From: Patescibacteria group bacterium
GTDB lineage: Bacteria; Patescibacteriota; Gracilibacteria; JAYELJ01
Assembly: GCA_034717395.1 (NCBI GenBank)
Contig: JAYELJ010000030.1
Location: forward strand, 1 to 21,115
Length of the DNA: 21,115 nucleotides
Direction: 5' to 3'
Part shown: piece by piece, positions 1-21,115 of the stretch
How positions within the stretch are numbered: the first letter of the stretch is position 1
Layout: every line of letters starts with the position of its first letter
The notes under the pieces: model-generated
Database searches by the model: none
Seen by the model: the letters and a program-made list of their open reading frames with translations, nothing else
What the model was told of the DNA's origin: nothing
Translations under genes and position numbers: made by a program

Positions 1-14
1 AATGGAAAGAAGTA

Positions 15-1895
15 ATGGGTTCATGTGCTCAGGCGCTTGCGACAACATCTCAATCGATGATTGATCATATTTATTCTGATATTACAGAGAAAAAAGATCA
101 TGCGAGTATGATGCTGATATACACAAGTGTATTTATTGTCCTTGCTCTTATTTTTATATTTATTTTGATAAGAGTAATCTCTTCTAGCATTGTCCATCCG
201 ACACAAACAATATCTGATGTACTGATATCATTTTTCAAAGTTCTCAATAGAGAAACAACACAATATGTACCAATGGAATTTGATGGAAAAGATGAGCTTG
301 GAACACTGATTACAACGACCAATGATGAAATTGTAGCAACCTTAGATGGTTTTAAAAAAGATACAGATACTATTGAAGAAACGAAAAGGGTGATCACTTT
401 AACAGATGCAGGACTATTCTTGTATGCTATTAAAACAACAGCAGATAATCCTGGAGTAGTAAGTATCGCTCAAACAACCAATAATTTTATAGCGGGGACA
501 ACAGAGCAGGTTCAAGAGATTAATAATGTCATTGGAGCAATAGCTTCTGGTAATTATACTGCCAAGATTCCTTCATCAGTCATGATGCTTGGAACCTATG
601 GTCTGATTAACAATTCTTTGGTTCTTCTTGCAAGAGCCTCTGGTATAAAATCAGCATTGATAAACAATACTGGTAAGCAGTTGCTCGATGCTACTCAGAA
701 AGGAACATCAAACGCTCAGATACTGTCTAAGAACTCAAATGAAACAGCAGCAGCACTAGAGGAAACAGCAGCAGCACTAGAGGAAGTGACGAGTACTGTT
801 ACTCAGACAACGGAAAATATGGCGCAGATGCAGAATTATGCAGATGATATTAATACATCTGCACAGACAGGTAAGTCTCTTGCAAATGATACCGTGTCTG
901 CCATGGATCAGATTAATGAAAAAGTTGCAGCTATTTTAGAAGCGATTACTGTGATAGATCAAATTGCATTCCAAACAAATATTTTATCGCTCAATGCAGC
1001 AGTAGAAGCAGCTACCGCTGGTGAAGCAGGAAAAGGCTTTGCCGTGGTGGCTCAGGAAGTAAGGAATTTGGCAAGTAGATCGGCAGAAGCAGCAAATCAA
1101 ATCAAAGATATTGTAGAGTCTGCAGAAACTGAAGCTTCTTCTGGAAAACAAAAAGCAGATGAAATGATTCAAGGGTACGACACGCTTATGAATAATATCA
1201 ATGAAACAACATTATTGATTCAAGATGTGTCTTCTGCAAGTAAGGAGCAGCAATCAGCAATTATTCAAATTAATGATGCAGTTACCAACTTGGATAGACA
1301 AACACAAGAAAATGCCAATGTGGCTAATTCTATGGAAACGATGATGAATGACAATCTCCAGCCTTTGGCTGAGAGTCTGGTGGCTATTGCACAAAGAGAT
1401 ACCTATGATCCTGGCTTAGAACAAGCTATCTGTGATCCTGATTTTGCGTATATGGTAGAAGATTTGAAAAGAGATCATGTGAAATTCAAAGAAACGATGC
1501 ATGCTTATGTAAGAGCAGCAGAGAAGAAGACAGAAGATCAGTTGCACAGAGAACAAGTACCAATGTTGAGTACCGAGACTGAGTGTAGATTTGGTCAGTG
1601 GATTGCACAGCAAGAAGCTGAAAATTCAGCTTTTGTTGGATCTTCAGAGTGGTCTGAGATCAAAGAACAGCATACTATTGTACATAAGTTGTCTCAGTCT
1701 TTTATGGAGGTTCATTATCCTCAGAAAAGAAATGCCGTGATTACTCAAATGCAATTCAGTAGAACGCCAACTGGAATTATTGTGGAGAAAGATCTTATTT
1801 CTCTTCATAAACAGATTGATGATGCAACAGATGCTCTGTTTGAAATTATGAATAGTTTAACAGTAGTTCATTGTAAACCAAAATATATGAGATAA
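15..1895 (+). CDS. methyl-accepting chemotaxis protein with C-terminal CZB (chemoreceptor zinc-binding) domain; may be 5'-truncated by the window edge
   Basis: Unbroken 626-codon ORF ending in TAA. It has one hydrophobic TM segment ([24 protein letters not shown]). It carries the canonical MCP hairpin-tip signature [44 protein letters not shown]. The frame stays open back to nt 3, so the ATG at 15 may not be the true start. Confidence 0.9.
741..785 (+). repeat. perfect 21-bp tandem duplication (2 copies plus 3 nt) inside the MCP gene, encoding [15 protein letters not shown]
   Basis: gaaacagcagcagcactagag occupies 741-761 and is repeated exactly at 762-782, followed by gaa. The repeat is in frame with the CDS. 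Confidence 0.95.
1476..1685 (+). other. CZB zinc-binding motif core within the MCP C-terminus
   Basis: The protein reads DH-VK-F ... C-R-F-G-Q-W ... H-TIV-H. This fits the CZB pattern Hxx[WFYL]...Cx[LFMVI]Gx[WFLVI]...HxxxH. The first spacer is about 32 residues by my count, slightly longer than usual. Confidence 0.7.
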
Positions 1896-1926
1896 ACATA
1901 TTTCCCCAAATATATATGATTTTATG

Positions 1927-1955
1927 CACAGAAGCTTTGTCTTCTGTGTTTTTTT
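1927..1955 (+). terminator. rho-independent terminator downstream of the MCP gene
   Basis: Stem cacagaag (1927-1934), loop ctttgt, stem cttctgtg (1941-1948), followed by TTTTTTT. Confidence 0.75.
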
Positions 1956-1977
1956 ATTTCCAAAAATCAGAGAAATC

Positions 1978-1986
1978 TGCTATAAT
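1978..1986 (+). promoter_or_regulatory. extended -10 promoter element (TGcTATAAT) upstream of the K+ channel gene
   Basis: An exact TGnTATAAT lies 36 nt upstream of the ATG at 2023. The -35 candidate is only weak (ttccaa). Confidence 0.5.
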
Positions 1987-2022
1987 ACAATGAAAATAAT
2001 CTATAATTTGTAAGTAGACTCA

Positions 2023-3045
2023 ATGACACAGACATCAAAACAACATCATATGCGGCGTGTGATAGCTCTCGGTGTGGGAGTGGTTACCATTGGAGTCCTT
2101 GGTTTTATGATTATCGAAGGCTGGAGCTTTGAAGATGCTCTCTATATGGTAATAATCACCCTGACAACCATTGGGTACCAAGAAGCTCAAGTTTTGAGTG
2201 ACACAGGTCGCTGGTTCAATATGGTATTTATCCTCTCTGGACTAGGGATTGTGCTCTATGCAATCTCTTATATATGAGCCTTTGTCGTCGAATGAGGGGT
2301 GAAACAATTTCTTATATCTCATTATACTTCTAATAAAATAAAAAAAATGAATAATCATTATATACTTTGTGGTCTAGGATCTGTGGGAAAACAGATTATC
2401 GAAGAGCTCAGACAAAATGGAAATGATGTCTGTGTCATTGATACAGATATTGATCAAAAAAATTATTGTAACAAAGAAGAACTCCTATTTATAGAAGGGG
2501 ATGCTTCGGATGAGGAGGTGCTCAAACAAGCGGGTGTAGATAAGGCAAAGGGTTTGATAGCTGCCACTGGTTCAGATGCAACGAATGTGTTTATCGTGTT
2601 ATCTGCTCGTCATGCAAATAAAGATCTATTTATTGTAGCAAGAGCGAACGAAAAAAATTCTCTTTCTAAACTCCGACAAGCAGGCGCAGACAAATCATCT
2701 CTTGCGCATCGTATTTCTGGGTACCATATGGCAACAATGGTAGAGCATCCCTCTGTGATTGATTTCTTGGATATATTAACCAATTCTTCGACTCATAGTT
2801 TTCGAATAGAAGAAGTTTATATCAGGGAGCAGTCATCGGTAGCAAATACTACGATCAAAGCATTTTTTGATCAGACTGAGTCAAATATTTCAGTGCTCGC
2901 AATATTCAAAGGATCAGCTGATAACTATATAATGAATCCAAAAGATGATCATATTATTGTTCCTGGCGACAGATTGATCGTGATGGGTGGAAGAGAAGAC
3001 CTCGACACAGTACTCGATCGTATAGAAAAACCAAAAACAGAATAG
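2023..3045 (+). CDS. 2-TM potassium-channel homologue with cytoplasmic RCK (TrkA-N plus TrkA-C) domains; two in-frame UGA(Gly) codons
   Basis: Track ORFs 2023-2277 and 2299-3045 share one frame and join through TGA at 2275 and 2293, giving ISYI[G]AFVVE[G]GVKQF. The protein shows TM1, a pore helix, a TLTTIGYQ filter and TM2. It then has a GLGSVGKQ Rossmann motif and a TrkA-C-like tail (PGDRLIVMG). Stop is TAG. Confidence 0.88.
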
Positions 3046-3066
3046 CGATGAGCTATTCTGTTTTTA
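3033..3066. terminator. bidirectional intrinsic terminator between the convergent K+ channel and uvrC genes
   Basis: Stem acagaatagc (3037-3046), loop gatga, stem gctattctgt (3052-3061). It is flanked by an A-run on one side and a T-run on the other. It overlaps both stop codons (TAG at 3043, TAA at 3064-3066 on the minus strand). Confidence 0.75.
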
Positions 3067-4914
3067 TATATTCTCTCGTAACCCTTTCCATATCTTTTCT
3101 CCAACAAGAGCTTGTAATTCATCATCGCTCGCATTACGTATACCGTCAAGTGATCAAAAATGTGTGAGAAGCTTTTTCTTAGTAACTCAACCAATTCCAG
3201 GAATAGTATCGAGGACAGATTTCTTGGCTGCTTTTATCCGACTATTCCTATTGTGAGTAATGGCAAACCTATGTGATTCATCTCGCATGTGTTGCAGGAG
3301 TCTCAGCTCGTCGGTTCCTTTTTCAAACATGATTGGATCAGACTGGTCAACGGTAAATATCTCTTCTTCTCTTTTTGCTATAGAGCAGAGAAATATATCT
3401 TTGTATGGGTCTATACCGTATTCTTCAAACACTTGTGCTACCGAAGAGAGTTGTCCTTTTCATCCATCTATAAGGATAAAATCAGGTCGAATAAAATTAT
3501 CTTTTCCGTAGTTTTTGAGTCGTCGGGTGAGTACTTCCTTCATACTTTTAAAATCATTAATCTCTCATTCTTGCAGTGTATCAATCTTATAGTGACGGTA
3601 GTCTTTTTTACTAGGCTGTCCATCTATGAATACCACCTGTGAAGCAACGGTATGAGTCCCCGAAAGATGAGAAATATCATAACACTCCATACGACTCACT
3701 TCTTGTTTTTGCGTAATAGAGAGCTTGGATTTGATATTATTTACAATTTTTTTATTTCCAATATAGCTCCGTTCAAATGATGCTTTTTGTTCTTTTGCAT
3801 AATTCTGTGCGTTCTGAGAGGCAAGAGTTATAAGATCCAGCTTTTCTCCTCGTTTGGGTGTTTTGATTCATAGGGAAGTCTTTGTGATATCACAGAGTGC
3901 TTGCTGCGTATCTTCCAATTCTGGAATATCAAGAGGAAGCAGTACTTCTTTTGGGTACGAAATAACTTCAGAGTAATATCTCAGAAGAAATTGTTGAATA
4001 ATAATCTGTAGATCTTCTTTTTTATGCTCATTCGTTTGTGAGTGTACTTGGAAATTCTCTCGTTGAATGAGTTTTCCCTCTCGTATTTGAAATACAGCAA
4101 AAGAGATAATATCACCTTCTTGATAAAATCAGATAATATCACGAGCGATAGTATCCACATGCTCTAGTTTTTGTTTTTCTTCTATTTCTTGTATGATTTG
4201 GTATTGCTCTTTGATCTTTGCAGCCTCTTCAAACAGCTGTTGTGTGGCAAGCTCCATCATTTTGTTTTTGAGTATTTTGAGTATTTCTCAGGTGTTCCCT
4301 TTGAGAAAACTTACAATCCCATCAATAGTATGTTGATATTCTTCGGGAGTAGTGAGCGCTGTACAAGGAGCTCCACATTTTTTGATATGGTAGTCCAGGC
4401 ATGGAGTGTTTCTGTCTATATTTTTGAGCTGAGTTTTCTTCTCTTCTATTACAATACTCATACGACAAGTACGATAGGGGAATATACCTCTCAGGAATTG
4501 GAGAAGTTTCTTTATTCTATTAGCAGATGTGTAGGGTCCAAAGTAGAGATTCTTATCTTTGGTTGGTCTTCGTACAATAGTGATTCTCGGAAACTGTTCG
4601 GTTGTATGTATTTTTATATAGACAAAGCTTTTATCATCTTTGAGCAAAATATTATATCTTGGTTTATGTTGCTTGATGAGATTATTTTCCAGGATCAGGG
4701 CTTCGATATTATTCGAGACCTCTATGTATTCAATATTGTCGATCTGGGGTACCATTTTGTGTGTCCAGACGGATCATTTATTTTTACCATTAAAATAACT
4801 CTGTACACGAGTACGGAGTTTTTTCGCTTTCCCTATATAGAGGATTGTATCATTTGTATCTTTGTATATATAACAACCAGGTTTATTTGGTATGTTTTTG
4901 ATTATATTTCTCAT
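3064..4914 (-). CDS. uvrC: excinuclease ABC subunit C (UvrC), 616 aa, with eight in-frame UGA(Gly) codons
   Basis: N-terminal GIY-YIG domain (KPGCYIYKD...[17 protein letters not shown]). Middle region [20 protein letters not shown]. Then PDFILIDG[G]KGQL and a C-terminal HhH region IPGIG[G][10 protein letters not shown][G]SLDGIRNAS. The minus-strand TGA codons have their lowest plus-strand coordinates at 4774, 4288, 4129, 3868, 3565, 3460, 3187 and 3154. Stop is TAA. Confidence 0.93.
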
Positions 4915-4916
4915 CT

Positions 4917-5183
4917 CTAGTTGATCATTTGTTCAAAGACTTTTCGTGCAATATCCTCCTGTTCTTTTTTTCGAGAAGCCTGTGTACTCATATCCAGACG
5001 GAGTGTATCACCAATATTTATATCTTCTGAAAGATTTTTAATAGGCCAGTAAAGAGTATTAGCTTTTGGTGTATCGTAGGGAGTTTGTATTTCTAGAATA
5101 GCAAAACGATCTTCAAAAGAGAGAATCTTTGCTTCAAGAGAATGATTGAATTGGTGATCGAGAGCTTGGTCTATGGTGAGCAT
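4917..5183 (-). CDS. small hypothetical protein (88 aa), possibly DUF3006-like; its stop lies 2 nt before the uvrC ATG
   Basis: Intact ORF ending in TAG at 4917-4919, with the uvrC ATG at 4914. The architecture ([15 protein letters not shown] ... [11 protein letters not shown] ... acidic helical tail) resembles DUF3006 from memory only. Confidence 0.55.
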
Positions 5184-5259
5184 GAGAAAAATGATAGTAA
5201 ATAATATGTATTCTTATTTTATTGTGTTTTGAATAATTATGCAATTTATGTTGAGCTTG

Positions 5260-6375
5260 TTATTCTAGAATCTGACCTCATCCCACAACATAATCTCCAT
5301 CGTAGAATACCGCTGTTTGACCAGGAGTGATAGCAACATTTGGAAATCGTTCGAAATCTATACGGCAAGTGTTGTTTTTTAGTCGAGTAAGTTGCGCAGG
5401 AATCTCCAAAGTTCTGTGGCGGATTTTGACAGAAATCATCTTCCAGTCTCGATTATATTTCTCATGGGACCAAGTAATATCTCGAACAATCATGTCCGTT
5501 TTCATAAGTGTCTCTTTTGGTCCGAGCCAGAGAGTGTTTGTATCGGGATTCATACGTGATACATAGACTGGGTCTGGAAAACCTCAGATATCTATTCATC
5601 TCCTCTGTCATATAGTGTAAGCAAGAAGACCGTTATGTTGTCCGAGTAATTGATTGGTTTCTGTGTGTCGAATTTCTCCTGGGACAAAATATCTTTCTCC
5701 TAGATGACGACGAAGAAAATCTATATGTCCCTTGTCTGGATGGAAGCATATCCCCATGGATTCTGGTTTCTCTATGACCGAATCCAGCCCCTGTTCGATG
5801 GCTATTTTCCGAACTTCTCCCTTGGTCATATGAGCCAGAGGAAATACACAGTGAGAGAGTTTCCATTGGTCCATTGTGTAGAGAAAATAACTCTGGTCTT
5901 TCATTGGGTCGAATCATTTTTTGAGTCTGTATTCTATTTCTCCATCTTGTTCTTCTTGGATCACATTGGCATAGTGACCAGTAGAAATATAGTCAGCTCA
6001 CATGTCTTGCATAGTTGTGAAATACAGTCCAAATTTGATACTTCGGTTACATTCGATACAAGGATTAGGAATGAACCCAGCTTTGTATGTGTCGAGATAG
6101 TATTGAACAACCGTGTCATAAAACTCCTGAATATAGTTAACACGATGCAGGGGAATATCGAGTTTTTTACATACATCGAGAGCATCTTGGTAGGCCTGAT
6201 CACCACAGCATCTGTTGGTAAATGTAGAGCCATCTGCATTGATACAACACTCATCAGCCCAATAGTTATGATAGACTCCTTCAACATTATACCCTTGTTC
6301 TTTGAGAAGATAGGCTGCTACAGCACTGTCTATCCCGCCTGACATACCGATAAGTACTTTTTTCCCTGTATTCAT
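5260..6375 (-). CDS. mnmA: tRNA-specific 2-thiouridylase MnmA, 371 aa, with six in-frame UGA(Gly) codons
   Basis: PP-loop VLIGMSGGIDSAV, then DM[G]ADYISTGHYA, LKK[G]FDPMKDQSYFLY, AYTI[G]QRR[G]IDI[G]G and a C-terminal FYDGDYVVG[G]GQILE. The TGA codons have their lowest plus-strand coordinates at 5998, 5914, 5608, 5596, 5584 and 5278. The true stop is TAA at 5260-5262. Confidence 0.93.
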
Positions 6376-6432
6376 GGATTTTTATTATAATATTGCGATT
6401 ATTCTATCATACTCTTGAGTATTTTCGAAAAG

Positions 6433-6458
6433 AAAAAAGCACTGAGATGACTCAGTAC
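6433..6458 (-). terminator. rho-independent terminator after the 139-aa orphan gene
   Basis: The minus strand reads GTACTGAG-TCAT-CTCAGTGC followed by TTTTTTCTTTT. Confidence 0.7.
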
Positions 6459-6462
6459 TTAT

Positions 6463-6882
6463 TTATTGATATGATTCGAATTGAATCTGTTCTTTCCCTT
6501 TTGTAGCGAAATCGAACATTTCTACAAGAGATACTTCCTTTTTCTGCTCGTTTGTTCCGTGCAGCATAATTCCTGTATTTTTCTTGTGTTGTTGTTGTTG
6601 CTCATCTATATCTGCTGAATGATGAGCTACTACTAACTGATCAAAAGTAAGTACTTTATTCACAGGTTCTTTTGTTTCTGGTGTCTTTTGATCCGAAGCC
6701 GAATCAGTGTAGACAATACTAGGGGTAAAAGATTTTTCTTTGAGTTGCTTCTGAATATTTTCAGAAGCTGTTTCTACATGAGAGATGGATACAAACCCTT
6801 TGACCGCTTCCCACAGATGCAGAAATAGGTTAGCGCTTGTATTTGTGTCTCTGATATGCGAATAAACTGGTGAAGCAGTCAT
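6463..6882 (-). CDS. hypothetical protein (139 aa), no recognisable family
   Basis: Intact ORF with a strong SD (AAAGGAGGTACACA-ATG) and a TAA stop followed by a terminator. It contains a QQQQ run. Confidence 0.7.
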   Translation of the reverse strand: MTASPVYSHIRDTNTSANLFLHLWEAVKGFVSISHVETASENIQKQLKEKSFTPSIVYTDSASDQKTPETKEPVNKVLTFDQLVVAHHSADIDEQQQQHKKNTGIMLHGTNEQKKEVSLVEMFDFATKGKEQIQFESYQ

Positions 6883-6971
6883 TGTGTACCTCCTTTTGTA
6901 GTACTAATTTTCTAGAACCAAGTGGTTCCATTGCGGGGCTCAACTGTTAAATTCCGAATTAAACTAAATCT

Positions 6972-7000
6972 ATATTATCGAGTTTATTATAAAATGTCTA
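6972..7000 (-). promoter_or_regulatory. candidate sigma70-type promoter for the 139-aa gene (TAGACA-17-TAATAT)
   Basis: The minus strand reads TAGACA (7000-6995), a 17-nt spacer, then TAATAT (6977-6972). A competing TATAAT sits inside the spacer, so the assignment is uncertain. Confidence 0.3.
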
Positions 7001-7034
7001 GGATTTTTCCCTTTATTTTTGTAGAATAGTATTA

Positions 7035-8417
7035 ATGAAGAATACAAAATTTGAACAACATACTGGACGTGTATGGATATGGGGCTTTGGAGTAGAATGA
7101 AAGGCTTCTTTTTCGTATTTTCAGAAATTCTACCCAGAGAGGAAATTGTGAATTATTGAGAATTATGAAAATTTGGATCCGGAGTTTATGAAGCAGTGTC
7201 GATCACAGAAAATATTACTGATAGACAAACAATACTTACCTGATCACGCATCCTATATACTCAAGGCGACTATTAAACCTCGGGATATTGTACTCAAGTC
7301 ACCGGGTATATCACCATTGTCCCAAGATTTTCAAGTGATACAAGATACAGGGGCTTCTATGAGCACCGCAACACAATTATTTCTTGCTATGTATCGTAAT
7401 CAAATTATCGGAGTTACAGGATCCAAAGGAAAATCAACAACATCATCATTGATCTACTCTATACTCCAGCAAACAACAGATAATGTGTATCTTGTTGGGA
7501 ATATAGGAATATCACCGCTACAAGTTTTGGTAGATCACACAGACTCTATAGATCACACAACAATATTTGTATATGAACTTTCCAGTTATCAACTCCATGG
7601 ACTCACTACCTCTCCAAAGTACGCAGTAATAACGAGTCTGTTTCCAGACCATTTGGATTGGCATGGGGGAAAAGATCCATATTATGCAGATAAATTGAAT
7701 ATATTGAGATTCCAGGATTATAAATCTGGAGATTGGTGTTTTATTTCTCATCAGGCAAGAGGGGTTATGCAAAATTCTGTCATCCTCGACTCCGATCGGG
7801 GATCTAGAATTTTTATTCAAGATAGAATCTTACCTCTACTTCAAAATCTGCAGATATGACAGAGTGTTATGTACTGACTCATTGGTCAGCACAACCAATC
7901 AAATATACAGTTAGCAATATCTGTTGCACAAACTCTTGGTTGTACAGAAGAGCAAATAGAACAGGGGATTGTAGGATTTCAGGGGCTTCCTCATAGATTG
8001 GAATATGTCTGAGAACACCATGGTGTAGACTGGTACGACGATGCCAATGCTGCAACACCAGAGTCTGTAATAGTCGCGTTAGATGCTCTATCTGAAGAAA
8101 ATAAACAGGTGGATACACTTTTTCTAGGGGGGAGCGATAGGGGATATGATTTTACAGAGTTACTAGGGAAAATATCTCAGTTACATATACAAAACATTGT
8201 GCTTTTCCCACCGAGTGGAGAGAGAATATATCAACAAATAGATCAAAAAAGATACACAATACTTCAAACAACTTCTATGCAAGAAGCGGTAGAGTTCGCA
8301 AAACAAAACACAGAAAAATGAAAAGTAGCCTTGCTTTCTTGCGGCTCTCCAAGCTATAGTTTATGGAGAAATTTCGAAGAAAAAGGTGATCTTTTTCAAA
8401 AATATATTACAGAATAA
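7035..8417 (+). CDS. murD: UDP-N-acetylmuramoylalanine--D-glutamate ligase (MurD), 460 aa, with six in-frame UGA(Gly) codons
   Basis: N-terminal VWIWGFGVE[G]KAS Rossmann-like motif and Mur ligase P-loop GVTGSKGKSTT. Further on come MY[G]LIGQHNQSN, GLPHRLEYV[G]EHHGVDWYDD and a C-terminal LLSCGSPSYSLWRNFEEKGDLF. TGA codons are at 7098, 7149, 7857, 7875, 8010 and 8319. Stop is TAA at 8415-8417. Confidence 0.9.
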
Positions 8418-9202: not shown

Positions 9203-9216
9203 ATATAATGAAACAC

Positions 9217-9248
9217 AAAAAACACCCAGCCAAGCTGGGTGTTTTTTT
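9217..9248. terminator. bidirectional intrinsic terminator between the convergent DUF502 and mscS-like genes
   Basis: AAAAA, stem acacccagc (9222-9230), loop caa, stem gctgggtgt (9234-9242), then TTTTTTT. Confidence 0.85.
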
Positions 9249-9268
9249 GATACTGAAAGAAAAACTTT

Positions 9269-10360: not shown

Positions 10361-10392
10361 AGAAAAAGTAAGAGAATAATTATTATTGGTCT

Positions 10393-10945: not shown

Positions 10946-12880
10946 TGCTTGTTTTGGTCCTTGTACTTCTCGATCACTCATAAGTTTTTGGAACTCTGTT
11001 GCATCAATAGTTTCTTTTTCTAGTAGTATATCCCCAATTTCTTTGAGTTTGTCTTTGTTTTCTGTAAGAAGATTGATGGCATTTTGATAGGCCGTTGTAA
11101 TTATTTGTTGTACTTCATCGTCAATTTTTTGTGCTGTGGAATCTGAGTATGATCGGCTGAGATTATTTATCTCTGCTGGGTTTCCAAATGCTACATTTGC
11201 CATAGACCCCATACCGTATACCATGATCATATTACGAGCTACTTGTGTTGCCCGTTCTATATCATTGGATGCTCCAGTGGTAATCGAACCAAACATTACT
11301 TGTTCTGCTGCACGACCTCCAAGATATGAAACAAGGTCCTGTTCAAATTTCTCTTTACTTGTAAGATGCGTATCTTCTTGTGGAAGGTACCAGGTTACTC
11401 CGAGTGCCGATCCACGAGAGACAATAGATATCTTATGTACTGGTTCACAGAGAGGGTTCAGATGTCCACAGATAGCATGTCCCGCTTCGTGATAGGCTGT
11501 TATTTTACGTTCTTTTTCACTAAGTTTACGAGATTTCTTTTCCAGACCAATAACGACTTTTTCTATAGCCATATGAATCATCTCCATATCGATAGATTTT
11601 TTCTTGTATTTGGTAGAAAGGATAGCAGCTTCATTGAGCATATTCGCAAGATCAGCCCCGGAAAATCCACTCGTTGCTTTGGCAATCTCTGCATAGTTTA
11701 CCTCTGGGTGCATTGGTTTATCTTTAGTGTGCACCTGGAGAATCTCTTCACGTTCTTTGATATTTGGTGGATCGATTGATATACGACGATCAAAACGTCC
11801 TGGACGGAGAAGAGCTGGATCTAGAATCTCTGGTCTATTGGTAGCAGCGATAACGATAACATTGGTATCAGTATCAAAACCATCCATTTCTACAAGTATT
11901 TGGTTGAGTGTTTGTTCTGAAGTAGAGCTTCCTGTGGCTGTTGACCCTCCAGTCTGACGTTTTTTTCCAACTGCATCGATCTCATCTATAAAGATGATAG
12001 CAGGGGAGCTTTGTTTTGCTTTGGTGAATAGGTCACGGACACGCGAGGCTCCAACCCCAACGAACATTTCTTCAAATTCAGACCCCGCAATATGAAAGAA
12101 TGGTACCTCTGCTTCTCCTGCCACTGCTTTTGCGACCAGTGTCTTCCCGGTACCAGGGGCTCCGAATAGAAGTACTCCTCGTGGGATCTTCGCTCCCATT
12201 TTTTGATACTTCTTCCCATGTTTAAGGAAATCTACAACTTCCATGAGCTCTTCCTTGGCTTCGTCTATACCAGCAACATCTTTAAATTTGGTATCTGGCT
12301 TCTTATTTACTTGTTTATCAAAATCTTTTCCTCCCATCATTCCTGCTGCACCACCACCCATGGATTTGCGCATGAGGAATACAAACAGAGCAATAATAAT
12401 AAGAAATGGAAGTATGCTTCCTGCAAGCTCTTTCCAGAATTTTCCACTTTCTTCTGAAACAATAATATCCACTTTGTTTGGATCTACCCCCAGCTCGATC
12501 AAAGAAGAGTAGATTTCTTTGGAACTCTTGAGTACAACAGGTGTAGAAGTATTATCAACAATAGCTCCAGAAAGGGTTGTGCCCGAGAGAGATTTATACG
12601 TGATCAATAGGTCTTTATTTTCTATGACTTCAATGGTATCGATCAGGTCATTATCACTATCGATAATTACTTGAGAAAGAGAGATGTCAGTAGAAACTGT
12701 TTCTGTGGCTTTTATAGTCGTATCCAAAGAAAACTGATCTTTTATCTCCTGGTCTGCCATGAGAGTATACGACCCTCCTATTGTAAATGAGATAATAAGA
12801 AGGGTTATAATAGGTCCAAAAGAGCCTTTTGATTTCTTTTGTTTCTTTTTGTTTGGTGCTTTATTTGCCATGTTGTTCAT
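10943..12880 (-). CDS. ftsH: ATP-dependent zinc metalloprotease FtsH
   Basis: Intact 645-codon ORF with Walker [19 protein letters not shown] and Walker [10 protein letters not shown]. It also has the SRH region [20 protein letters not shown] and the zinc site HEAGHAI. There are no in-frame TGA codons. Confidence 0.95.
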
Positions 12881-12926
12881 ATATTAAAATAAAGTAGAGA
12901 ACGATTATTAAATTACAGGTGTAATA

Positions 12927-13853
12927 ATGAAGAAAAAAGGTGAAATAATCAACATTTTCTGTTATAATAGAATATCAAAGATAAAAAACAAAAATCTCAT
13001 GCAATTTACAAAACATGTTTCATTTCGCTCATTTGCAGCGATTTCTGGAGGAGTATTTCTGAATATATTTGGAATACTCTCAACGGTATCAACCGTAGGG
13101 GGCAGTCTTTCATCGAGTGCAATGCTCAATTCAGTATTCAATATTGAAAATATGAATACCCTGGATATTATGGCAGAGCCATCGCTCACCCTGTCTCTTC
13201 TACAGGTTGTGTTTCTTTCACTCTTCTTTTCCAGCGCTATATTGCTTCTTGTATTTCAATTTCTTTTAAAATATGAGGCACGTAAACAACGTGTAGCGAA
13301 GATGGAGTCACAAGGACCACAAGCACGGGATGAAAGTGTATATAGTATTATGGATGATATTCCTGTGGTTGGTTTTCTCGAGGTATGTACTTTTGTCTGG
13401 GTATCATCATTTCTCATATTGATTTCTCACTACGTATTTGTGCATTTTGATACACTGCTTGCTATCGATGCGGATCTTCGTATTTCGGCTATCATCTTTG
13501 GTCTTCTCGGGGGAGCACTTGCTAGTATTAAATTCTTTATTCCCAATTCTGGAAATGGGATTTCACAAGATAAAATAAAAACAGAGTTTTCTTCTCAGTA
13601 TGTGTATAAATATCTTTTTTCTCCATTTATTTCGAGTCTCCTTGCTTTGTTAGTATATCTTGCATTGCTTGCTAGTGGAGTAGAGTTTAGTCAGTTTACT
13701 TCAGAGAATTCAGCAACTTTTGCTTTCATATTTATCATCTCAGGGTACTATTCAGAACAAGTGTTTACTATGATGTATAATATTATGAGTTCCGTTGTTG
13801 CATCGGTAGAAGCCTATTTTGCCAAAATTATCCCTTCACATCATACCAAGTAG
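12927..13853 (+). CDS. hypothetical polytopic membrane protein (308 aa), no recognisable family
   Basis: Intact ORF with an SD-like AGGTG 5 nt upstream and about six hydrophobic segments. TAG stop followed by a terminator. An internal Met (MQFTKH) is an alternative start. Confidence 0.6.
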   Translation: MKKKGEIINIFCYNRISKIKNKNLMQFTKHVSFRSFAAISGGVFLNIFGILSTVSTVGGSLSSSAMLNSVFNIENMNTLDIMAEPSLTLSLLQVVFLSLFFSSAILLLVFQFLLKYEARKQRVAKMESQGPQARDESVYSIMDDIPVVGFLEVCTFVWVSSFLILISHYVFVHFDTLLAIDADLRISAIIFGLLGGALASIKFFIPNSGNGISQDKIKTEFSSQYVYKYLFSPFISSLLALLVYLALLASGVEFSQFTSENSATFAFIFIISGYYSEQVFTMMYNIMSSVVASVEAYFAKIIPSHHTK

Positions 13854-13860
13854 GTGTAGT

Positions 13861-13900
13861 AAAAACTGGTTTCTTTTCTCAAAGAGCCAGTTTTTATTTT
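13861..13900 (+). terminator. rho-independent terminator after the membrane-protein gene
   Basis: aaaaactgg (13861-13869) pairs with ccagttttt (13887-13895). There is additional imperfect inner pairing and a T-run downstream. Confidence 0.6.
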
Positions 13901-13929
13901 TTGACAAAACATATACAGATCAGTACTAT
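13901..13929 (+). promoter_or_regulatory. candidate promoter of the pyrC/pyrD-like operon (TTGACA-17-TACTAT)
   Basis: Perfect -35 TTGACA at 13901-13906, a 17-nt spacer, then TACTAT at 13924-13929. Confidence 0.55.
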
Positions 13930-14016
13930 ATCGTATAACATGTTTCTAGCTACAATCAAGTAGCCAGTGGTATGTAATTTTGCAAAATTATAAAAGAGAA
14001 AGAGGAGAACAGAGCC

Positions 14017-15111
14017 ATGACACAAAGAATGAAAAAGTATATAGATTTACCAGGTATGGTAGACGCACATGTCCATTCGAGAGATCTAAAACAGAGATCA
14101 AAGATGACCGTAATGCAAACAATGAAAGAAGCTCGGAAGAGTGGAGTAGCGACAGTATGTCTGATGCCGAATACAGACCCATCGATTGATAATGAGGAAA
14201 CTCTTAATGAATACTTGAGATTGATGGAAGATGCAGAGCGAAAAACAGGAGTAACAGCGTATGTATGGGTAGCATTGACTGATACAAATCATGCAGAAGT
14301 GATCAAAATGCTCAGGTATAAAAAGGTATGCGGGGTAAAAGTATATCCTCTCAAGCCAACAGGAGAATCAGTAACTACTGGTGCGGTTGGTATCCAGCAG
14401 TGGTCTTCGATCATGAAGTTATTATTCATGATGCGAGAAGAGGCTAATATAGACAAACCGATTGCTGGGCATTTTGAAGATCCGTTACTTGGGCATACAG
14501 AAGAGTCTGAGGTGTCTGCACTAAAAACACTTGTTTCTATTGCCAAAAGATATCCAGAACAAAGATTTACTGCTTGTCATATTACTAGTGCGGGTGGTTT
14601 AGCTATTATTGAAGAGGCTTGGGCTTCAGGTCTGAAAATCATGGCAGAGCTAACACCACATCATCTATGGTGGAATAGAGAAACAATCAAATTGTCTCAG
14701 CATGCTGCTGCATTATTTCATTGTTTTCCTCCTATTAAAGAACCAAAAGATCAACAAGCACTGATTCAGTTTTTGGTAAAGCATCAAAAAAATCCGCTTG
14801 TCTCTATTGGTTCTGACACAGCTCCTCATCATCGATCAGAAAAAGCAGGAGATAATCCTCCTGGTGGAGTTCCTGCTCTGCAGCATAGCATACCAGTATT
14901 GCTTACTATTGCTCAGGAGTACGGTATAGAAGACGGACATATTTGTTATCTTATACATGATAATGTGATCGAACATTTGGGTATTGAAAGTGTTCCAGAT
15001 ACAATGAATACCAAATGGGTGCTCCAGCCAAGTACAGATGCTATTGTTTATAATAAAGGTGAAGTATCGAGTCCTTGGATAGGAGAAAAATTCGCATATA
15101 CGCGAGCATAA
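14017..15111 (+). CDS. pyrC: dihydroorotase (class II-like amidohydrolase)
   Basis: SD AGAGGAG upstream. Motifs are DAHVHSRD (metal-binding HxH), CLMPNTDPS, GVKVYPLKPTGESVTTG (matching E. coli-type KLYPAgaTTNS) and GSDTAPHH. TAA stop. Confidence 0.8.
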   Translation: MTQRMKKYIDLPGMVDAHVHSRDLKQRSKMTVMQTMKEARKSGVATVCLMPNTDPSIDNEETLNEYLRLMEDAERKTGVTAYVWVALTDTNHAEVIKMLRYKKVCGVKVYPLKPTGESVTTGAVGIQQWSSIMKLLFMMREEANIDKPIAGHFEDPLLGHTEESEVSALKTLVSIAKRYPEQRFTACHITSAGGLAIIEEAWASGLKIMAELTPHHLWWNRETIKLSQHAAALFHCFPPIKEPKDQQALIQFLVKHQKNPLVSIGSDTAPHHRSEKAGDNPPGGVPALQHSIPVLLTIAQEYGIEDGHICYLIHDNVIEHLGIESVPDTMNTKWVLQPSTDAIVYNKGEVSSPWIGEKFAYTRA

Positions 15112-15125
15112 AAAGGGGAGTAATT

Positions 15126-16202
15126 ATGAAATTAGGAAATATGAGTTTAGGGCCTATATTGGGAGCTTCTGGTGTAGAAGGGAATTTCGGAGAAGGGTAT
15201 TGGTATCATAAATTATTACATGGTTTTAGTTTGTTAGATCTGAGTGGCCTTGTCTTTGTTAGTAAAACTGCTACTTTGAATCCAAGAAAAGGAAATACTC
15301 CATTTGTTTATGATGAAAACTACTTTTCTCCTTCAGAGATCAAACCAAAATCGATTGTAATAAAACCATTTCAAAAAAATGTGTTGAATGCAGTCGGTCT
15401 AGGAAACCCTGGTTTAGAAGCTTTATTGAAAACAGGACATTATCAATCGAGAAAAGACCCATTTTTAATTTCTATAATGTCTATAGCAGGATCAGAAGAT
15501 TCAAGAAAAGCAGAAATGGCAAAAATGATTGCTATTCTTGAAAAATATAAAAATGAGTTTCAATCACTATTTGGGCTTCAGATAAACCTATCATGTCCAA
15601 ATACTGCGCATGATCCATGTTCATTGATTGCAGAGTCTTCGGATATGATAGGTATTGCTGCAAGACTTGGTGTTCCTTTGATGCCAAAATTTAGTATTGC
15701 ATCAGCACCAATTGCAGCATTGATGGAACTCAATGAGAATCCTCATGTAGATGCTATTTGTTTATCAAATACACTGCCATATGACTGGCAACCTTCAGAA
15801 AATCTGTATAGAATTTCTAAAGGAGATGATTACTTTGAAGATTTTCAAAGATTACAAAGAAGAGGATTTATCTCTTGGAAAAGTGATGGAAAAACAGTAT
15901 ATATTGTTACATTCATCAATTGGGAGAAGATATTTGGAACAACAGAATCTCCACTTGCTTCTATGGGTGGTGGAGGACTTTCGGGGGATATTATTCGACC
16001 ATTTGTCCTTCATTATATCAAACAACTCAGAGCAGAAGGTTTTTCTAAACCAATCAATGGTGGAGGTGGAATTATGAAGCCGGAACATGTTGATATGTAT
16101 AAAGCTGTTGGAGTAAACTCAGTCTTTATCGGGTCTGTTGTAATGACACGACCATGGGATGCGGAAGATATTATAAAAAGAGCAAATGAAATTTTTTGAT
16201 AG
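15126..16202 (+). CDS. dihydroorotate dehydrogenase-like (class 1-type) FMN TIM-barrel protein with a large internal insertion
   Basis: SD AGGGGAG sits 5 nt before the ATG at 15126; the track start at 15075 overlaps pyrC and lacks an SD. Motifs are GASGV, NAVGLGNPG, QINLSCPNT, GGGLSGDIIRP and INGGGGI. The frame ends ...NEIF-TGA-TAG, so under code 25 the stop is TAG at 16200-16202. Confidence 0.75.
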
Positions 16203-16203
16203 A

Positions 16204-16238
16204 CCCCAGTCTTTATAGACTGGGGATTTTTCTTTTTT
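16204..16238 (+). terminator. rho-independent terminator after the pyrD-like gene
   Basis: Stem ccccagtct (16204-16212), loop ttat, stem agactgggg (16217-16225), then ATTTTTCTTTTTT. Confidence 0.85.
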
Positions 16239-16272
16239 GTATTTTTTCTCCCTTTTGGGTAGAGTGGCTATA

Positions 16273-19230
16273 ATGAAAAATAAACATTTATACCTCATGA
16301 ATATCTCTCAATTTGATACAGCATACCAAAAACTCAACCCAGCACAAAAACAGGCAGTAGATACTCTCTATGGTCCGGTGGCTGTGATCGCAGGTCCAGG
16401 AACAGGGAAAACCCAGCTCCTGACACTGCGTATTGCTAACATACTCAAATCTACCGATGTGCAACCCCACAATATCCTTGCTCTTACCTTTACCGAAGCA
16501 GGGGCTATTGCTATGCGTCAGCGTTTGGTATCTTTTATCGGACCGGCAGCATACCAGGTACAGATCCTTACCTTTCATGGGTTTTGTAATGAGATGATCC
16601 AGAGTTATAGCGAAGAATTTCAGTTTTCCAAAACACTCCAATCGATTTCCGAGCTGGAGAAACGCAAGCTCCTTTCGCATATATTTCGCTCAGAAAAGCT
16701 TTCGTATCTCTATAACCGTTTCGATCCAGAGATGTATCTGTACGATACCCTGAGTCTTATTTCTCAAATGAAACGAGAACAGATCTCTCCAGATCAGCTG
16801 AATACTATGATAGACCAGGGTTTAGAGAAAATAGATGCAGTCGAAGAATTTCAGTATCAAAGAAAATATAAAGACAAACAACCAGGGGATTTTAATGCAA
16901 AATATTATAAAGAGCAGGATAAGCTCGCAAAGAATAAAGAATTTGTCCTGGTGTATAAAAAATATGAAGAACAACTCAAAGAGAAAGGGTGGTATGATTT
17001 TGATGATATGATCGGACTCGTTCTGAAAAAAATGAATGAAGATAGTCAGTTTCATGCGCTGCTCCAAGAACAGTTTCAATTTATTATGGTAGATGAGTAT
17101 CAAGATACCAATGGGGTACAAAATGCTATTGTATCAAAGCTTATAGAGGGAGTTCAGCAACCCAATATATTGGTAGTAGGGGATGACGAACAGTCAATCT
17201 ATCGTTTTCAAGGAGCAGTTATGGAAAATGTATTAGAGTTCTTTCAGACACATGCCAGTGGTGGTATGACATCAGTAGTCTTGTCAGATAACTACCGAAG
17301 TACTCAGAAGATTTTGGATGCTTCTCGAGAGCTGGTTCGTAATAATACCCAATCTCTGGAAAAAGCATTAGATTTGAATAAAAAACTGATATCTCATACA
17401 ACGGAAAACACCCCTATAGAAATATACCAAGGAGAAAATGAAAACACAGAAAGTTATTATATTATCAAACAGATAGAAAAACAGCATGCAGCAGGGATCC
17501 CATTCAAAGAAATGGCTATTATCTACAGAAACAATGCAGATAGTCTCGAGTTGATCGAAGCAATGAGGCGAGCAGGAATTCCTTTTAAAAAACAAAAAGG
17601 AGAGAATCTTCTCCATCTTCACGAAGCACAAAAATTACTTCGTACTCTCGAGTTGATAGAAAGTTTTGAAACCAGTCATCTTCTTTGGGAGGTTTTGAGT
17701 TATGATTTTATGGGACTCAATGTTCTGGATCTCATGCATCTACAAAATCAAGCTCGAGAAGAAGGTGTTACCTTTTTTCAAATGCTTCTCAAGAGTGAAA
17801 ATGAACAAATCACAGAAAAGCTAGAAAGAATTATAGCTCTCAAAGAAGCTCAGGCAAATACGAGTCTTGTTGGATTTTTTGAACACTTTTTAGAAGAGAC
17901 AGGGTATCGTGAATATATTCTACAGCAAGAAGATAAGTTAGAAAGACTTAATATTCTCAATTCACTGTTCAATGAAATCAAAAGCTTTGCCAGTGAATAT
18001 CCTCAAAAAGGAGTTTCTGATTTTCTTCAGTATCTGCAAGATTTAGAATTCTATGGAATAGCTCCTGTGGCACAACCACTCAAGACAAGTGACGATGCCG
18101 TACAGCTGATGACAGCACATGGATCCAAAGGGCTTGAATATGATGTTGTATTTATTATGAAAACTATTTCGAGTCGTTGGGAAGCGAAGCGATCAGTATC
18201 CAAACTTTCTCTTTCTGTACATATATTTGAAGATCAGGAAATCCTCTCTTCTGAAGATAAAAAACTGCAATCTCTCGAAGAAGAACGCCGGCTATTTTAT
18301 GTAGCCATGACTCGTGCACGAAGGTATCTCTATATCACATCAGCCAAAAATTATGCTGGTTCAGATGCTATGCTCTCTCGTTTTGTATCCGAGCTACCAG
18401 ATGATATCTGTAACCATTCAGAAGTCGAAGATATCGACAATACCGATCTTCTGACTTTGTTTACTTCAGCTCCACAGCAAGTAGATTGGACCGCTGCCTT
18501 TGAGTCGGAACTCCGAGAACGAGCAAACAAATATGTATTATCTGTGACTGCACTCAACACCTGGATAGCCAGTCCAAAAGAGTTTTTAGAAAGACACCTT
18601 ATCCGTATACCATCAGCCAAGAATACCTCTGCGAGCTTTGGGACGATTGTTCATGAAGTACTCAACCAAGTATCTCGCAATTACCAGAAAACAGGTCAGG
18701 TATTATCTCATGATGATTGGGTGGATGTTTTACATGCTACCGCAGAGAAAGAAATATTATCTGGTCAAGAACGAGAAAAGATAATAGAAGAAGCAGAGAG
18801 TGTTATTGACCGATATATTTCCGTAGCCGAAAAAGAGCTGACACTCAAAGCGGAGTCGGAAGTCTATTTTGGGTTTCATCCTGTGGTGGTAGAAGGTATG
18901 CCAATCAAAGGGATGATTGATCGTATCGAATACCAAGAAGATGGGTCTGTAGTTGTGGTAGATTACAAAACAGGGAAAAGCAAGAAATCCAAAGAACAGA
19001 TGGAAGGATACATCCGTCAGATGTATTTTTACAAACTTCTCTATGATGGATCTGGTCGCAAAGAGCCACTTTCCGGAGGGGTATTTGATTTTGTAGAAGA
19101 TCTGCAAGACTCTATCAATAGAAAAATAATTTCATATGATACAGAAAAAATGGACGAATTACGAAGACATATAAAAGCTTTCAAAGAATCTCTCGATACC
19201 CTTAATTTTCCAGAAGAACATCTTGTATAA
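16273..19230 (+). CDS. UvrD/PcrA-family superfamily-1 helicase fused to a C-terminal PD-(D/E)xK (RecB-type) nuclease domain
   Basis: Walker A AGPGTGKTQ, motif II MVDEYQDTN, VVGDDEQSIYRFQGA, YRST, TAHGSKGLEYDVVF and YVAMTRAR. The C-terminal part reads FGTIVHEVL ... GMIDRIEY ... VVVDYKTGKSK ... QMYFYKLL. I chose the ATG at 16273; the ATG at 16297 (MNISQ) is an alternative. The TTG at 16237 lies inside the upstream terminator T-run. Confidence 0.88.
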   Translation: MKNKHLYLMNISQFDTAYQKLNPAQKQAVDTLYGPVAVIAGPGTGKTQLLTLRIANILKSTDVQPHNILALTFTEAGAIAMRQRLVSFIGPAAYQVQILTFHGFCNEMIQSYSEEFQFSKTLQSISELEKRKLLSHIFRSEKLSYLYNRFDPEMYLYDTLSLISQMKREQISPDQLNTMIDQGLEKIDAVEEFQYQRKYKDKQPGDFNAKYYKEQDKLAKNKEFVLVYKKYEEQLKEKGWYDFDDMIGLVLKKMNEDSQFHALLQEQFQFIMVDEYQDTNGVQNAIVSKLIEGVQQPNILVVGDDEQSIYRFQGAVMENVLEFFQTHASGGMTSVVLSDNYRSTQKILDASRELVRNNTQSLEKALDLNKKLISHTTENTPIEIYQGENENTESYYIIKQIEKQHAAGIPFKEMAIIYRNNADSLELIEAMRRAGIPFKKQKGENLLHLHEAQKLLRTLELIESFETSHLLWEVLSYDFMGLNVLDLMHLQNQAREEGVTFFQMLLKSENEQITEKLERIIALKEAQANTSLVGFFEHFLEETGYREYILQQEDKLERLNILNSLFNEIKSFASEYPQKGVSDFLQYLQDLEFYGIAPVAQPLKTSDDAVQLMTAHGSKGLEYDVVFIMKTISSRWEAKRSVSKLSLSVHIFEDQEILSSEDKKLQSLEEERRLFYVAMTRARRYLYITSAKNYAGSDAMLSRFVSELPDDICNHSEVEDIDNTDLLTLFTSAPQQVDWTAAFESELRERANKYVLSVTALNTWIASPKEFLERHLIRIPSAKNTSASFGTIVHEVLNQVSRNYQKTGQVLSHDDWVDVLHATAEKEILSGQEREKIIEEAESVIDRYISVAEKELTLKAESEVYFGFHPVVVEGMPIKGMIDRIEYQEDGSVVVVDYKTGKSKKSKEQMEGYIRQMYFYKLLYDGSGRKEPLSGGVFDFVEDLQDSINRKIISYDTEKMDELRRHIKAFKESLDTLNFPEEHLV

Positions 19231-19343: not shown

Positions 19344-19502
19344 ATGGCTGGAAAAAAGAAACATTGTCTTGTAGGGATTCATTCTCGTCGTCCAAAGACA
19401 ACAGTAGCAGAAAAAGTTCGTAAAGCTCGTGTTCGTACACGTAAACATGCTTTCCTTCTTGCTCAATCAGAACGTATGGCAGCAGCTCGCGCAGCTCTAT
19501 AA
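19344..19502 (+). CDS. small, highly basic hypothetical protein (52 aa) that falls below the ORF-track length cutoff
   Basis: Translation is MAGKKKHCLVGIHSRRPKTTVAEKVRKARVRTRKHAFLLAQSERMAAARAAL. It has 15 Lys/Arg and 2 acidic residues. All 8 Arg codons are CGT or CGC, with no AGA. A candidate promoter lies upstream and a strong terminator downstream. There is no SD. Confidence 0.5.
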   Translation: MAGKKKHCLVGIHSRRPKTTVAEKVRKARVRTRKHAFLLAQSERMAAARAAL

Positions 19503-19540: not shown

Positions 19541-20527
19541 TTATCTTAAATATTGCTCTATATTCCAGAGGTGCTCATTATAATCTTTTCCATAATATAT
19601 TTGTCCAGAGTTACTATGAAGGTAGTAGTAATACGGAGAAGACTCTGGCTGCATTGCAGCTTTAAAAGATTCAGTAGAAAAATTGGAGATGGCTGTGGGA
19701 GGAAATCCTAGATTCCTACGCGTATTGTAGGGAGAATCACTTTCAAAATCAGCAGTATAGAGTGGAGCAGTCCATCGATCAAGTTGATAGCGAGTGGTGG
19801 CATCTATACCCAGAGGAATACCTTCTTGCTGTCTTTTGTATATAATTCCACTCACAATAGCTTTTTCATCATGTTTTCGCGTTTCTTTTTCTATGAGACT
19901 AGCAACATTGACCAGTGTAGAGAGACTATCTAGATCTGGATCCAAAGCAAGGATGTTGGATTCGAAACTACGAAGCATCTTGGAAATAATCTCTTTTTCT
20001 GTACTGTTTTCTTTGAACCTATACGTATTTGGAAATAGATATCCTTCCATACTTCTCCAGTCATTTCTCTCTGGTAAAAATGTATTCAGTGTTTCAAAAT
20101 CACATCTAATGAGACAGTTTTTAAATTTCTCTTCTGAAAGATAGGGGAATATATCCTGTGTCTGATCTATAATTTGTTCGATAGTCTGTCATTCTTTGAA
20201 GGTAATCTGGAGTTCATTTTCTGGATTGGGTACTCCAGTAATAATCAAAGCTAAACTATTAAAAGTTACTTTGTCTGGTAGAGTATACGATCCTGCTTTG
20301 ATTTTAGTAGCAAGATCTTCTGATTTCAAATATCGAAGAAAGTAGTAAGCAGAAGGAATAATATTATTGTCAGTGAGGTATTCTGCTGCAGCCTGGGAAC
20401 TGGTTCATTTTTCTATGCGAATATCATACATACTATCGGGAACAGTGTATTGCTGTCCTTCGTAGTACAGAGCAAATCCATTATATATCAATATGGTAGA
20501 AACGATTCCAAAGAGAAGTTTTTTCAT
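19541..20527 (-). CDS. mltG: endolytic murein transglycosylase MltG (YceG-like), 328 aa, with two in-frame UGA(Gly) codons
   Basis: N-terminal TM anchor (MKKLLFGIVSTILIYNGF), then IRIEK[G]TSSQAAAEYL, ITFKE[G]QTIEQI, the signature MEGYLFPNTYRF and GLPPTAISN-type GFPPTAISN. The TGA codons have their lowest plus-strand coordinates at 20405 and 20189. TAA stop. Confidence 0.88.
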
Positions 20528-20552
20528 AAAAAGAAAGGGGAAAAATAGTATC

Positions 20553-20580
20553 AAAAAACGCATACGAAATTGTATGCGTT
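20553..20580 (-). terminator. rho-independent terminator after the XRE-family gene
   Basis: The minus strand reads AACGCATAC-AATTTC-GTATGCGTT followed by TTTTTT. Confidence 0.8.
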
Positions 20581-20613
20581 AGTATAGTATCCTGATGGTA
20601 TAAAATCAAATAG

Positions 20614-20856
20614 CTATGCGCGTTTGATTTCCATAAGATCAGCAATATGTTCAACCGTTATTTCTAGCTTGGTTGCGAGACCAAAAGCAGTATCGATATT
20701 GATGCTATGAAAACGATCACCAGATTCTAGACGAGAGATATAGCTTTCATTGACACCGATAAAATCAGCAAGCTGAAACTGAGTAAGGCTCAATTCTTTT
20801 CGGCGAGATTTGATATACTCTCCAAGATTTTTCATCCCTTTGCGTAATTCAGACAT
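20614..20856 (-). CDS. XRE-family helix-turn-helix transcriptional regulator (80 aa)
   Basis: Classic HTH_3 pattern: IKSRRKELSLTQFQLADFIGVNESYISRLESGDR. TAG stop. Confidence 0.85.
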   Translation of the reverse strand: MSELRKGMKNLGEYIKSRRKELSLTQFQLADFIGVNESYISRLESGDRFHSINIDTAFGLATKLEITVEHIADLMEIKRA

Positions 20857-20936
20857 AATAAAGAAGAATTAAATGATACTTGATAAAATACAAAATTATT
20901 TTTTGTATATACTACAATACTCTCTTATTTCTATTA

Positions 20937-20953
20937 GTCAATATTAAATTGAC
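20937..20953. promoter_or_regulatory. inverted repeat GTCAAT-N5-ATTGAC in the divergent XRE/ddl intergenic region; candidate operator
   Basis: Arms of 6 bp at 20937-20942 and 20948-20953. The arms coincide with TTGAC-type -35 hexamers on both strands (TTGACT on minus, TTGACA on plus). Confidence 0.35.
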
Positions 20954-20990
20954 AAAAATCATATTATATATTTCTATTATTGAAAATCTC

Positions 20991-21019
20991 TTGATAGTAT
21001 TTCTTATGACGACTAGAAT
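20991..21019 (+). promoter_or_regulatory. candidate promoter of ddl (TTGATA-17-TAGAAT)
   Basis: TTGATA at 20991-20996, a 17-nt spacer, then TAGAAT at 21014-21019, 29 nt upstream of the ATG at 21049. Confidence 0.5.
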
Positions 21020-21048
21020 ATAGCTAATTATTACTTCTCTTTTATTTT

Positions 21049-21115
21049 CATGGTTTCTAATATTGCAATTATAACAGGAGGAAAGGGTTCAGAACGTGAT
21101 ATATCTATTCGTTCT
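21049..21115 (+). CDS. ddl: D-alanine--D-alanine ligase, N-terminal 22 codons only (runs off the window)
   Basis: MVSNIAIITGGKGSERDISIRS matches the conserved Ddl N-terminus (vavlfGGrSaEreVSlrS). Confidence 0.55.

Follow-up and report, generated by a model that had tools for sequence, protein, structure and literature searches.

Glycine as the probable meaning of UGA (translation table 25) in a divergent Patescibacteria contig

Genes interrupted by TGA

The subject of this analysis is the meaning of UGA in contig JAYELJ010000030.1, part of a metagenome-assembled genome deposited at NCBI; the contig was analysed over its whole length of 21,115 bp, which is referred to here as the window. When TAA and TAG are taken as the sole stops, its 6,475 codons include 25 in-frame TGA codons and no in-frame TAA or TAG. 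An earlier reading of the sequence (the original prediction) had listed 25 such codons, and the recount matched it exactly, both in the coordinates and in the number per gene: eight in uvrC, six in mnmA, six in murD, two in a K+ channel gene, two in mltG and one in a pyrD-like gene. The TGA-bearing genes are free of frameshifts and are listed below, with codons on the minus strand cited by their lowest coordinate and scores given for the matching NCBIfam models.

2023–3045, plus strand: MthK-like K+ channel with an RCK gating domain (Pfam Ion_trans_2, TrkA_N and TrkA_C); TGA at 2275 and 2293 (codons 85 and 91)
3064–4914, minus strand: uvrC (TIGR00194, 560 bits against a cut-off of 285, residues 5–599); TGA at 4774, 4288, 4129, 3868, 3565, 3460, 3187 and 3154
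5260–6375, minus strand: mnmA (NF001138, 362 bits against a cut-off of 284, full length); TGA at 5998, 5914, 5608, 5596, 5584 and 5278
7035–8417, plus strand: murD (TIGR01087, 260 bits against a cut-off of 212, residues 12–458); TGA at 7098, 7149, 7857, 7875, 8010 and 8319
15126–16202, plus strand: pyrD-like gene (dihydroorotate-dehydrogenase-like); TGA at 16197–16199 as the terminal sense codon, followed directly by TAG
19541–20563, minus strand: mltG, YceG family (TIGR00247, 178 bits against a cut-off of 103, residues 16–340); TGA at 20405 and 20189

Internal TGAs thus number 24 and are spread over five genes, the pyrD-like TGA being a terminal codon. This last codon is uninformative on the encoded residue and is the sole TGA in the window that is readable as a terminator; under code 25 it adds one C-terminal Gly, and the pair TGA TAG could also be a former TGA stop backed by the adjacent TAG. 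It had been claimed that all 19 coding sequences end in TAA or TAG, which holds for the 18 complete ones (17 of at least 80 aa and one open reading frame of 52 aa); the 19th, a ddl-like gene beginning at 21041, leaves the window at its 3' end and so shows no terminator.

In a search of NCBIfam models against proteins in which each TGA was masked as X, UvrC, MnmA, MurD and MltG were each matched as a single stretch, essentially over the whole length of the model and above the curated cut-offs, and Pfam domains likewise bridge the TGA sites. Under table 11 the TGA-bearing genes are split into two to five pieces, the K+ channel, for example, becoming fragments of 84 and 232 aa. These matches bear out the proposal that five conserved genes are broken under the standard code and become full-length when TGA is read through. 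Coding density reaches 92.6% if TGA is a sense codon and 84.9% if it is a stop, and TGA makes up 25 of 379 glycine codons in the window (6.6%) when counted as one. The GC content is 37% (32–41% along the window), inside the range reported for the Gracilibacteria and Absconditabacteria clades.

A different account would be that the TGAs are real stops in a standard-code genome, the genes being pseudogenes or carrying sequencing or assembly errors, and the public annotation does read these TGAs as stops and call fragments. Set against this, all 25 interruptions are TGA and not one is a TAA, a TAG or a frameshift; homology continues across them at full-length model coverage, and TGA ends no gene, the ambiguous pyrD-like case aside. 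The codons also fall preferentially on conserved Gly columns, as described in the next section. Errors in the sequence are addressed by a second assembly: a contig in the Logan collection, assembled independently from run SRR26901930, corresponds to positions 959–6336 of the window and is identical to it. It includes both channel TGAs, all eight in uvrC and five of six in mnmA (the one at 5998 lies inside as well), so that the TGAs are not the error of one assembler. Real stops are accordingly given a negligible chance.

The residue read at TGA

The identity of the residue was approached through alignments of approximately 120 homologues each of UvrC, MnmA and MurD (357 in total), which are 27–44% identical to the window proteins; those of MurD were collected using a TGA-free fragment as query. 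Many of the homologues are named from Bacillota, Clostridia, Deltaproteobacteria, Chloroflexota and Peregrinibacteria, and as most were called with table 11, a G in their sequences cannot stem from a translated TGA. Of the 20 testable TGA columns, 13 (65%) have glycine as their most frequent residue, in comparison to 69% of columns for GGN codons of the window and 2.8% for its non-glycine codons, an excess with a binomial P of ~5e-16. Glycine exceeds 90% in six of the columns: UvrC codons 485 and 587, MnmA codons 256, 260 and 366, and MurD codon 22.

The individual genes show where the signal lies. Among 120 UvrC homologues, G occupies codon 485 in all 120 and codon 587 in 114, and it is the plurality residue at codons 450 and 262; the remaining four TGA columns are variable and contain no Trp. 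In MnmA, G is the top residue at all six TGA columns, with counts of 96, 50, 120, 115, 56 and 118 in 120 homologues. MurD has G in 110 of 117 homologues at codon 22, which as read appears to lie within a Rossmann-type G-x-G-x-x-G motif, in 75 at codon 326 and in 68 at codon 429, with codons 39, 275 and 281 being variable columns.

Wherever a TGA column is conserved, the solved structures of proteins from standard-code organisms show Gly. For UvrC, codons 47, 485 and 587 correspond to Gly in the Bacillus caldotenax and Thermotoga maritima structures, and codons 450 and 576 fall in variable loops. All six mnmA sites are Gly in the Escherichia coli structure and in a Gram-positive (Streptococcus pneumoniae-type) MnmA structure. 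Codon 429 of MurD is Gly in both Streptococcus agalactiae and E. coli, codons 326 and 281 being Gly in S. agalactiae only. MltG codon 53 is G in Listeria monocytogenes Lmo1499, and codon 125 is G in both Lmo1499 and E. coli YceG. The two channel columns are variable in solved structures, with L and R in MthK and S and P in GsuK.

These comparisons carry most of what the original prediction had claimed residue by residue, as ten of its twelve individual assignments to Gly hold. The two that do not are murD 7875, a column dominated by P, K and S in which just some homologues, among them S. agalactiae MurD, have G, and channel 2293, which aligns with R in MthK and with P in GsuK. Both columns are variable, and hence neutral rather than contradictory.

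A decoding in the manner of Codetta was carried out over the UvrC, MnmA and MurD alignments together with one of FtsH (approximately 120 homologues each), with 20 TGA sites. Expressed as log-odds in nats, Gly scores +22.5 at TGA, Ser is next at −26.4, and Trp stands at −59.0, a margin for Gly of ~49 nats over the next residue and ~81 over Trp. As a control, 61 of 61 sense codons regain their standard meaning in the same procedure. CTA had been considered as a second reassignment, since it decoded as V/I in the control with three alignments; with FtsH added, CTA falls on invariant Leu and all 61 are correct, and this candidate was dropped.

A reading of UGA as Trp (table 4), known from Mycoplasmatales and a number of insect endosymbionts, deserves mention as the genome is low in GC and UGA to Trp is the commoner bacterial reassignment. 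The alignments speak clearly against it: Trp is the top residue in none of the 20 TGA columns, whose 2,335 residues include three Trp, the log-odds of Trp is the −59 given above, TGG in the window decodes cleanly as Trp (+32.4), and the solved structures show Gly. Table 4 is for these reasons considered extremely improbable.

Site-specific recoding, by selenocysteine or by programmed read-through, is the other explanation in which TGA would be translated, UGA being the bacterial selenocysteine codon. Selenocysteine sites align with Cys in homologues, and Cys is found just four times among the 2,335 residues of the TGA columns. In addition, a single gene has as many as eight sites, the genes concerned have housekeeping roles and do not encode selenoproteins, and Rfam finds no selenocysteine insertion sequence (SECIS) or other element in the window. 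Recoding is therefore highly implausible. Taken together, the homology through the TGAs, the glycine columns and the scarcity of Trp and Cys exclude table 4, selenocysteine and pseudogenes as serious accounts of this contig.

From its coding sequences and their alignments, it is strongly supported that UGA is a glycine codon here and that translation table 25 applies, where tables 11 and 4 do not. We place the probability that the organism uses table 25, with UGA as an ordinary Gly codon and only UAA and UAG as terminators, at about 95%. The central claim of the original prediction, that UGA is glycine, is thus shared by the structures, the columns of 357 homologues and the decoding; two of the checks that it had proposed, an alignment to profile models or homologues with a tally of the TGA columns and a code inference (made here on window alignments), returned Gly as the top residue in 13 of 20 columns with Trp in none, and UGA to Gly, respectively.

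Several observations weigh against the use of table 25. In seven of the 20 testable TGA columns the residues vary and most of them are not Gly, as is likewise the case for 31% of GGN codons in the window. A tRNA scan, of this contig only, found no tRNA gene. The best matches to the window proteins are only 40–44% identical for UvrC and MnmA and 50–59% for FtsH, and among relatives named 'Gracilibacteria' the closest seem to have UGA as a stop. Lastly, the use of TGA is strongly uneven from gene to gene, which is not predicted for a simple genome-wide synonymous codon.

Uneven use of TGA and the neighbouring genes

Most of the TGAs (22 of 25) lie within four adjacent genes at 2023–8417, namely the channel gene, uvrC, mnmA and murD, and 20 of the 25 are in uvrC, mnmA and murD. 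A gene-level permutation gives p ~0.001 for this unevenness between genes; clustering of TGAs inside genes is not significant (p = 0.11). Genes free of TGA include ftsH (48 GGN codons), a 985-aa helicase-nuclease (43), the chemotaxis gene listed below (24), mscS, and those for thioredoxin, DUF502 and an amidohydrolase. The block from 8441 to 19230 holds eight consecutive genes with no internal TGA against 205 GGN codons, each terminating in TAA or TAG, which shows these two to be the stops in use. The remaining features of the window are as follows.

15–1895, plus strand: methyl-accepting chemotaxis protein with a C-terminal zinc-binding CZB domain (Pfam); no TGA, ends in TAA
8441–19230: eight consecutive genes (DUF502, mscS, thioredoxin, ftsH, hypothetical, dihydroorotase-like, pyrD-like, UvrD-nuclease helicase)
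10943–12880, minus strand: ftsH; no FtsH_ext N-terminal domain detectable; long branch
14017–16202, plus strand: adjacent dihydroorotase-like and dihydroorotate-dehydrogenase-like pair
19344–19502, plus strand: very basic open reading frame of 52 aa, MAGKKKHCLVGIHSRRPKTTVAEKVRKARVRTRK..., in the 310-bp gap between the helicase gene and mltG; ends in TAA

A methyl-accepting chemotaxis protein is unusual in bacteria with such reduced genomes. Both members of the 14017–16202 pair fall far short of their NCBIfam equivalog cut-offs, with 139 bits where 279 are required and 79 where 269 are required; the pair is divergent, and its real substrates are uncertain. The Logan assembly lists the 52-aa frame at 19344–19502 as a gene; the frame has no Pfam match.

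Two explanations of the unevenness were considered and rejected. Should the TGA-free genes be foreign, their codon usage would be a natural place to look; synonymous usage with glycine excluded does not differ between the two sets, 17% of random gene partitions reaching the observed value. A chimeric contig was rejected as a Logan contig bridges murD to mscS. The like codon usage and the bridging contig together indicate neither a chimera nor recent transfer. Selection related to expression level, or chance, is a possible cause of the uneven use of TGA.

Public annotation, placement and comparison with known codes

The NCBI record, 'Patescibacteria group bacterium', carries locus tags U9Q15_013xx and proteins MEA3304395–MEA3304414, and gaps in the tags and accessions at mnmA and murD imply table-11 fragments there. 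In the Logan gene calls, mnmA, uvrC, murD, mltG and the channel gene are fragmented under table 11. The expectation that gene callers using table 11 would mis-annotate the contig is thus seen directly in the Logan calls and implied by the NCBI numbering. When the contig is re-annotated with table 25, five genes regain their full length and coding density rises from ~85% to ~93%; this correction is the chief value of the finding. No paper dealing with the run, the locus-tag prefix or the accession was found. Mislabelling of the translation table, in both directions, is a recognised problem for this group (gTranslate preprint).

The opposite direction may be represented by two relatives named 'Ca. 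Gracilibacteria bacterium' (GCA_021734545.1 and GCA_046314355.1), which were called with table 25 and have rare in-frame TGAs at expected stops. The genes concerned are the following, on two contigs designated L086 and L082.

L086, 2253–6983, minus strand: gene with in-frame TGA
L086, 13967–15073, minus strand: gene with in-frame TGA
L082, 17440–18207, minus strand: gene with in-frame TGA

One of these TGAs stands between the HD-domain and penicillin-binding-protein (PBP) parts of a 1,576-aa 'fusion', and the others are 8–17 codons before the annotated end. These relatives probably use table 11 in spite of their table-25 annotation, an error opposite to that in the window. As a separate observation, the low-GC contigs of the closest UvrC and FtsH matches (L081 and L085) show no in-frame TGA in ~9,600 codons and use TGA for 1 of 24 and 1 of 12 stops, respectively, so that TGA is near-unused in either role. 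Such near-absence is the state expected just before or after codon capture.

Known occurrences of code 25 are confined to the GTDB class JAEDAM01, which consists of the orders BD1-5 and Absconditabacterales (gTranslate preprint). Absconditabacteria are additionally predicted to read CGA and CGG as Trp and use them rarely (Shulgina & Eddy 2021, PMC8629427). The window has 50 CGA codons (77 per 10,000 codons) and 11 CGG codons (17 per 10,000). CGA decodes as R at +23.9 and as W at −52.5 over 18 sites, and CGG as R at +6.2 and as W at −11.5 over five; both align with invariant Arg, for example at uvrC codons 115, 278, 464, 465, 544 and 559 and at mnmA codon 189. Since both codons are fairly common and mean Arg, a code of the Absconditabacteria type is disfavoured and the Gracilibacteria/BD1-5 side preferred. 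The contig probably belongs to JAEDAM01 (Gracilibacteria/BD1-5 and Absconditabacteria), more likely on the BD1-5 side, and the earlier placement of the DNA in Gracilibacteria or Absconditabacteria would seem reasonable.

No close relative was found for the proteins themselves. The named best matches come from Ca. Gracilibacteria, Peregrinibacteria, Abawacabacteria and 'Patescibacteria' at 39–59% identity, and among 5.8 billion proteins none is above ~44% for UvrC and MnmA or 59% for FtsH. In a neighbour-joining tree FtsH of the window forms a long branch, being 50–54% identical to its 113 best matches, which are mutually ~60% identical. Exact-sequence look-ups of the window FtsH and thioredoxin returned no record, and those of a hypothetical gene and of an HTH gene led to Logan contigs contained in the window. 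A scan of GTDB genomes with FtsH gave 46–55% identity, mostly to Chloroflexota among the matches listed; confirmation by tblastn in such a scan breaks at TGA in code-25 genomes. Genes of relatives that use code 25 would be fragmented in most databases and hence would rank low in protein searches, so that their absence from the top matches is uninformative.

This distance lends some weight to an alternative in which UGA is again Gly and the organism lies outside both known code-25 orders, through an independent origin or a wider spread within Patescibacteria. In its favour are the ceilings on identity just given, the long branch of FtsH, the fact that the nearest named relatives behave as standard-code genomes, and an NCBI label that goes no further than 'Patescibacteria group bacterium'. 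Against it, code-25 relatives are shattered in table-11 calls and would be expected to be missing from the top matches, and class JAEDAM01 has no NCBI name, which by our reasoning would account for the generic label and agrees with the translation-table errors described for NCBI records (gTranslate preprint). We regard this alternative as unlikely. Were a deep-branching lineage of Patescibacteria outside the two orders involved, for which the chance is small, it would extend the UGA to Gly reassignment or show its repeated origin, and the concentration of TGA in some genes would reflect incomplete or selectively constrained codon capture.

With table 25 as the preferred reading, decoding in this organism can be proposed by analogy with the lineages that share this code: a tRNA-Gly(UCA) would read UGA, release factor 2 (prfB) would have been lost, and RF1 would terminate translation at UAA and UAG. 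For those lineages, the UCA-anticodon tRNA-Gly and the loss of RF2 are given as established (Campbell 2013 and Rinke 2013, as cited in later papers). The glycine identity elements of tRNA-Gly(UCA) are G1:C72, C2:G71, G3:C70 and U73. A Pfam domain survey of the window proteins found no release-factor gene, and a tRNA scan of related loci turned up only tRNA-Lys(CUU).

The reassignment of UGA to Gly has been known since 2013, and the window may be set beside the codes already described. It resembles Gracilibacteria (BD1-5), the group for which table 25 was described (Rinke et al. 2013, as cited in later papers), in that UGA stands in frame at conserved Gly with UAA and UAG as the sole terminators, GC is low to moderate (37% here), the gene content is of the Patescibacteria type, and CGA and CGG are Arg. 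It differs from them in reaching at most 44–59% protein identity, in having its TGAs gathered in some of the genes, and in an NCBI record that is labelled only at the level of Patescibacteria and annotated with table 11. The code of Absconditabacteria (SR1) likewise has UGA as Gly; there, however, no species reaches 37 CGA per 10,000 codons and just one reaches 7 CGG, in comparison to 77 and 17 in the window (PMC8629427). Users of table 4 (Mycoplasmatales, Hodgkinia, Zinderia, Nasuia and Stammera, among others) share with the window a UGA moved from stop to sense, a leaning towards AT and, probably, a reduced genome, but the residue in the window is Gly and not Trp. The scientific value is modest, as a very divergent genome joins the small set that uses code 25, and its uneven use of TGA could be informative on the spread of a captured stop codon. 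The contig is a very divergent addition to a known reassignment, and not a new one.

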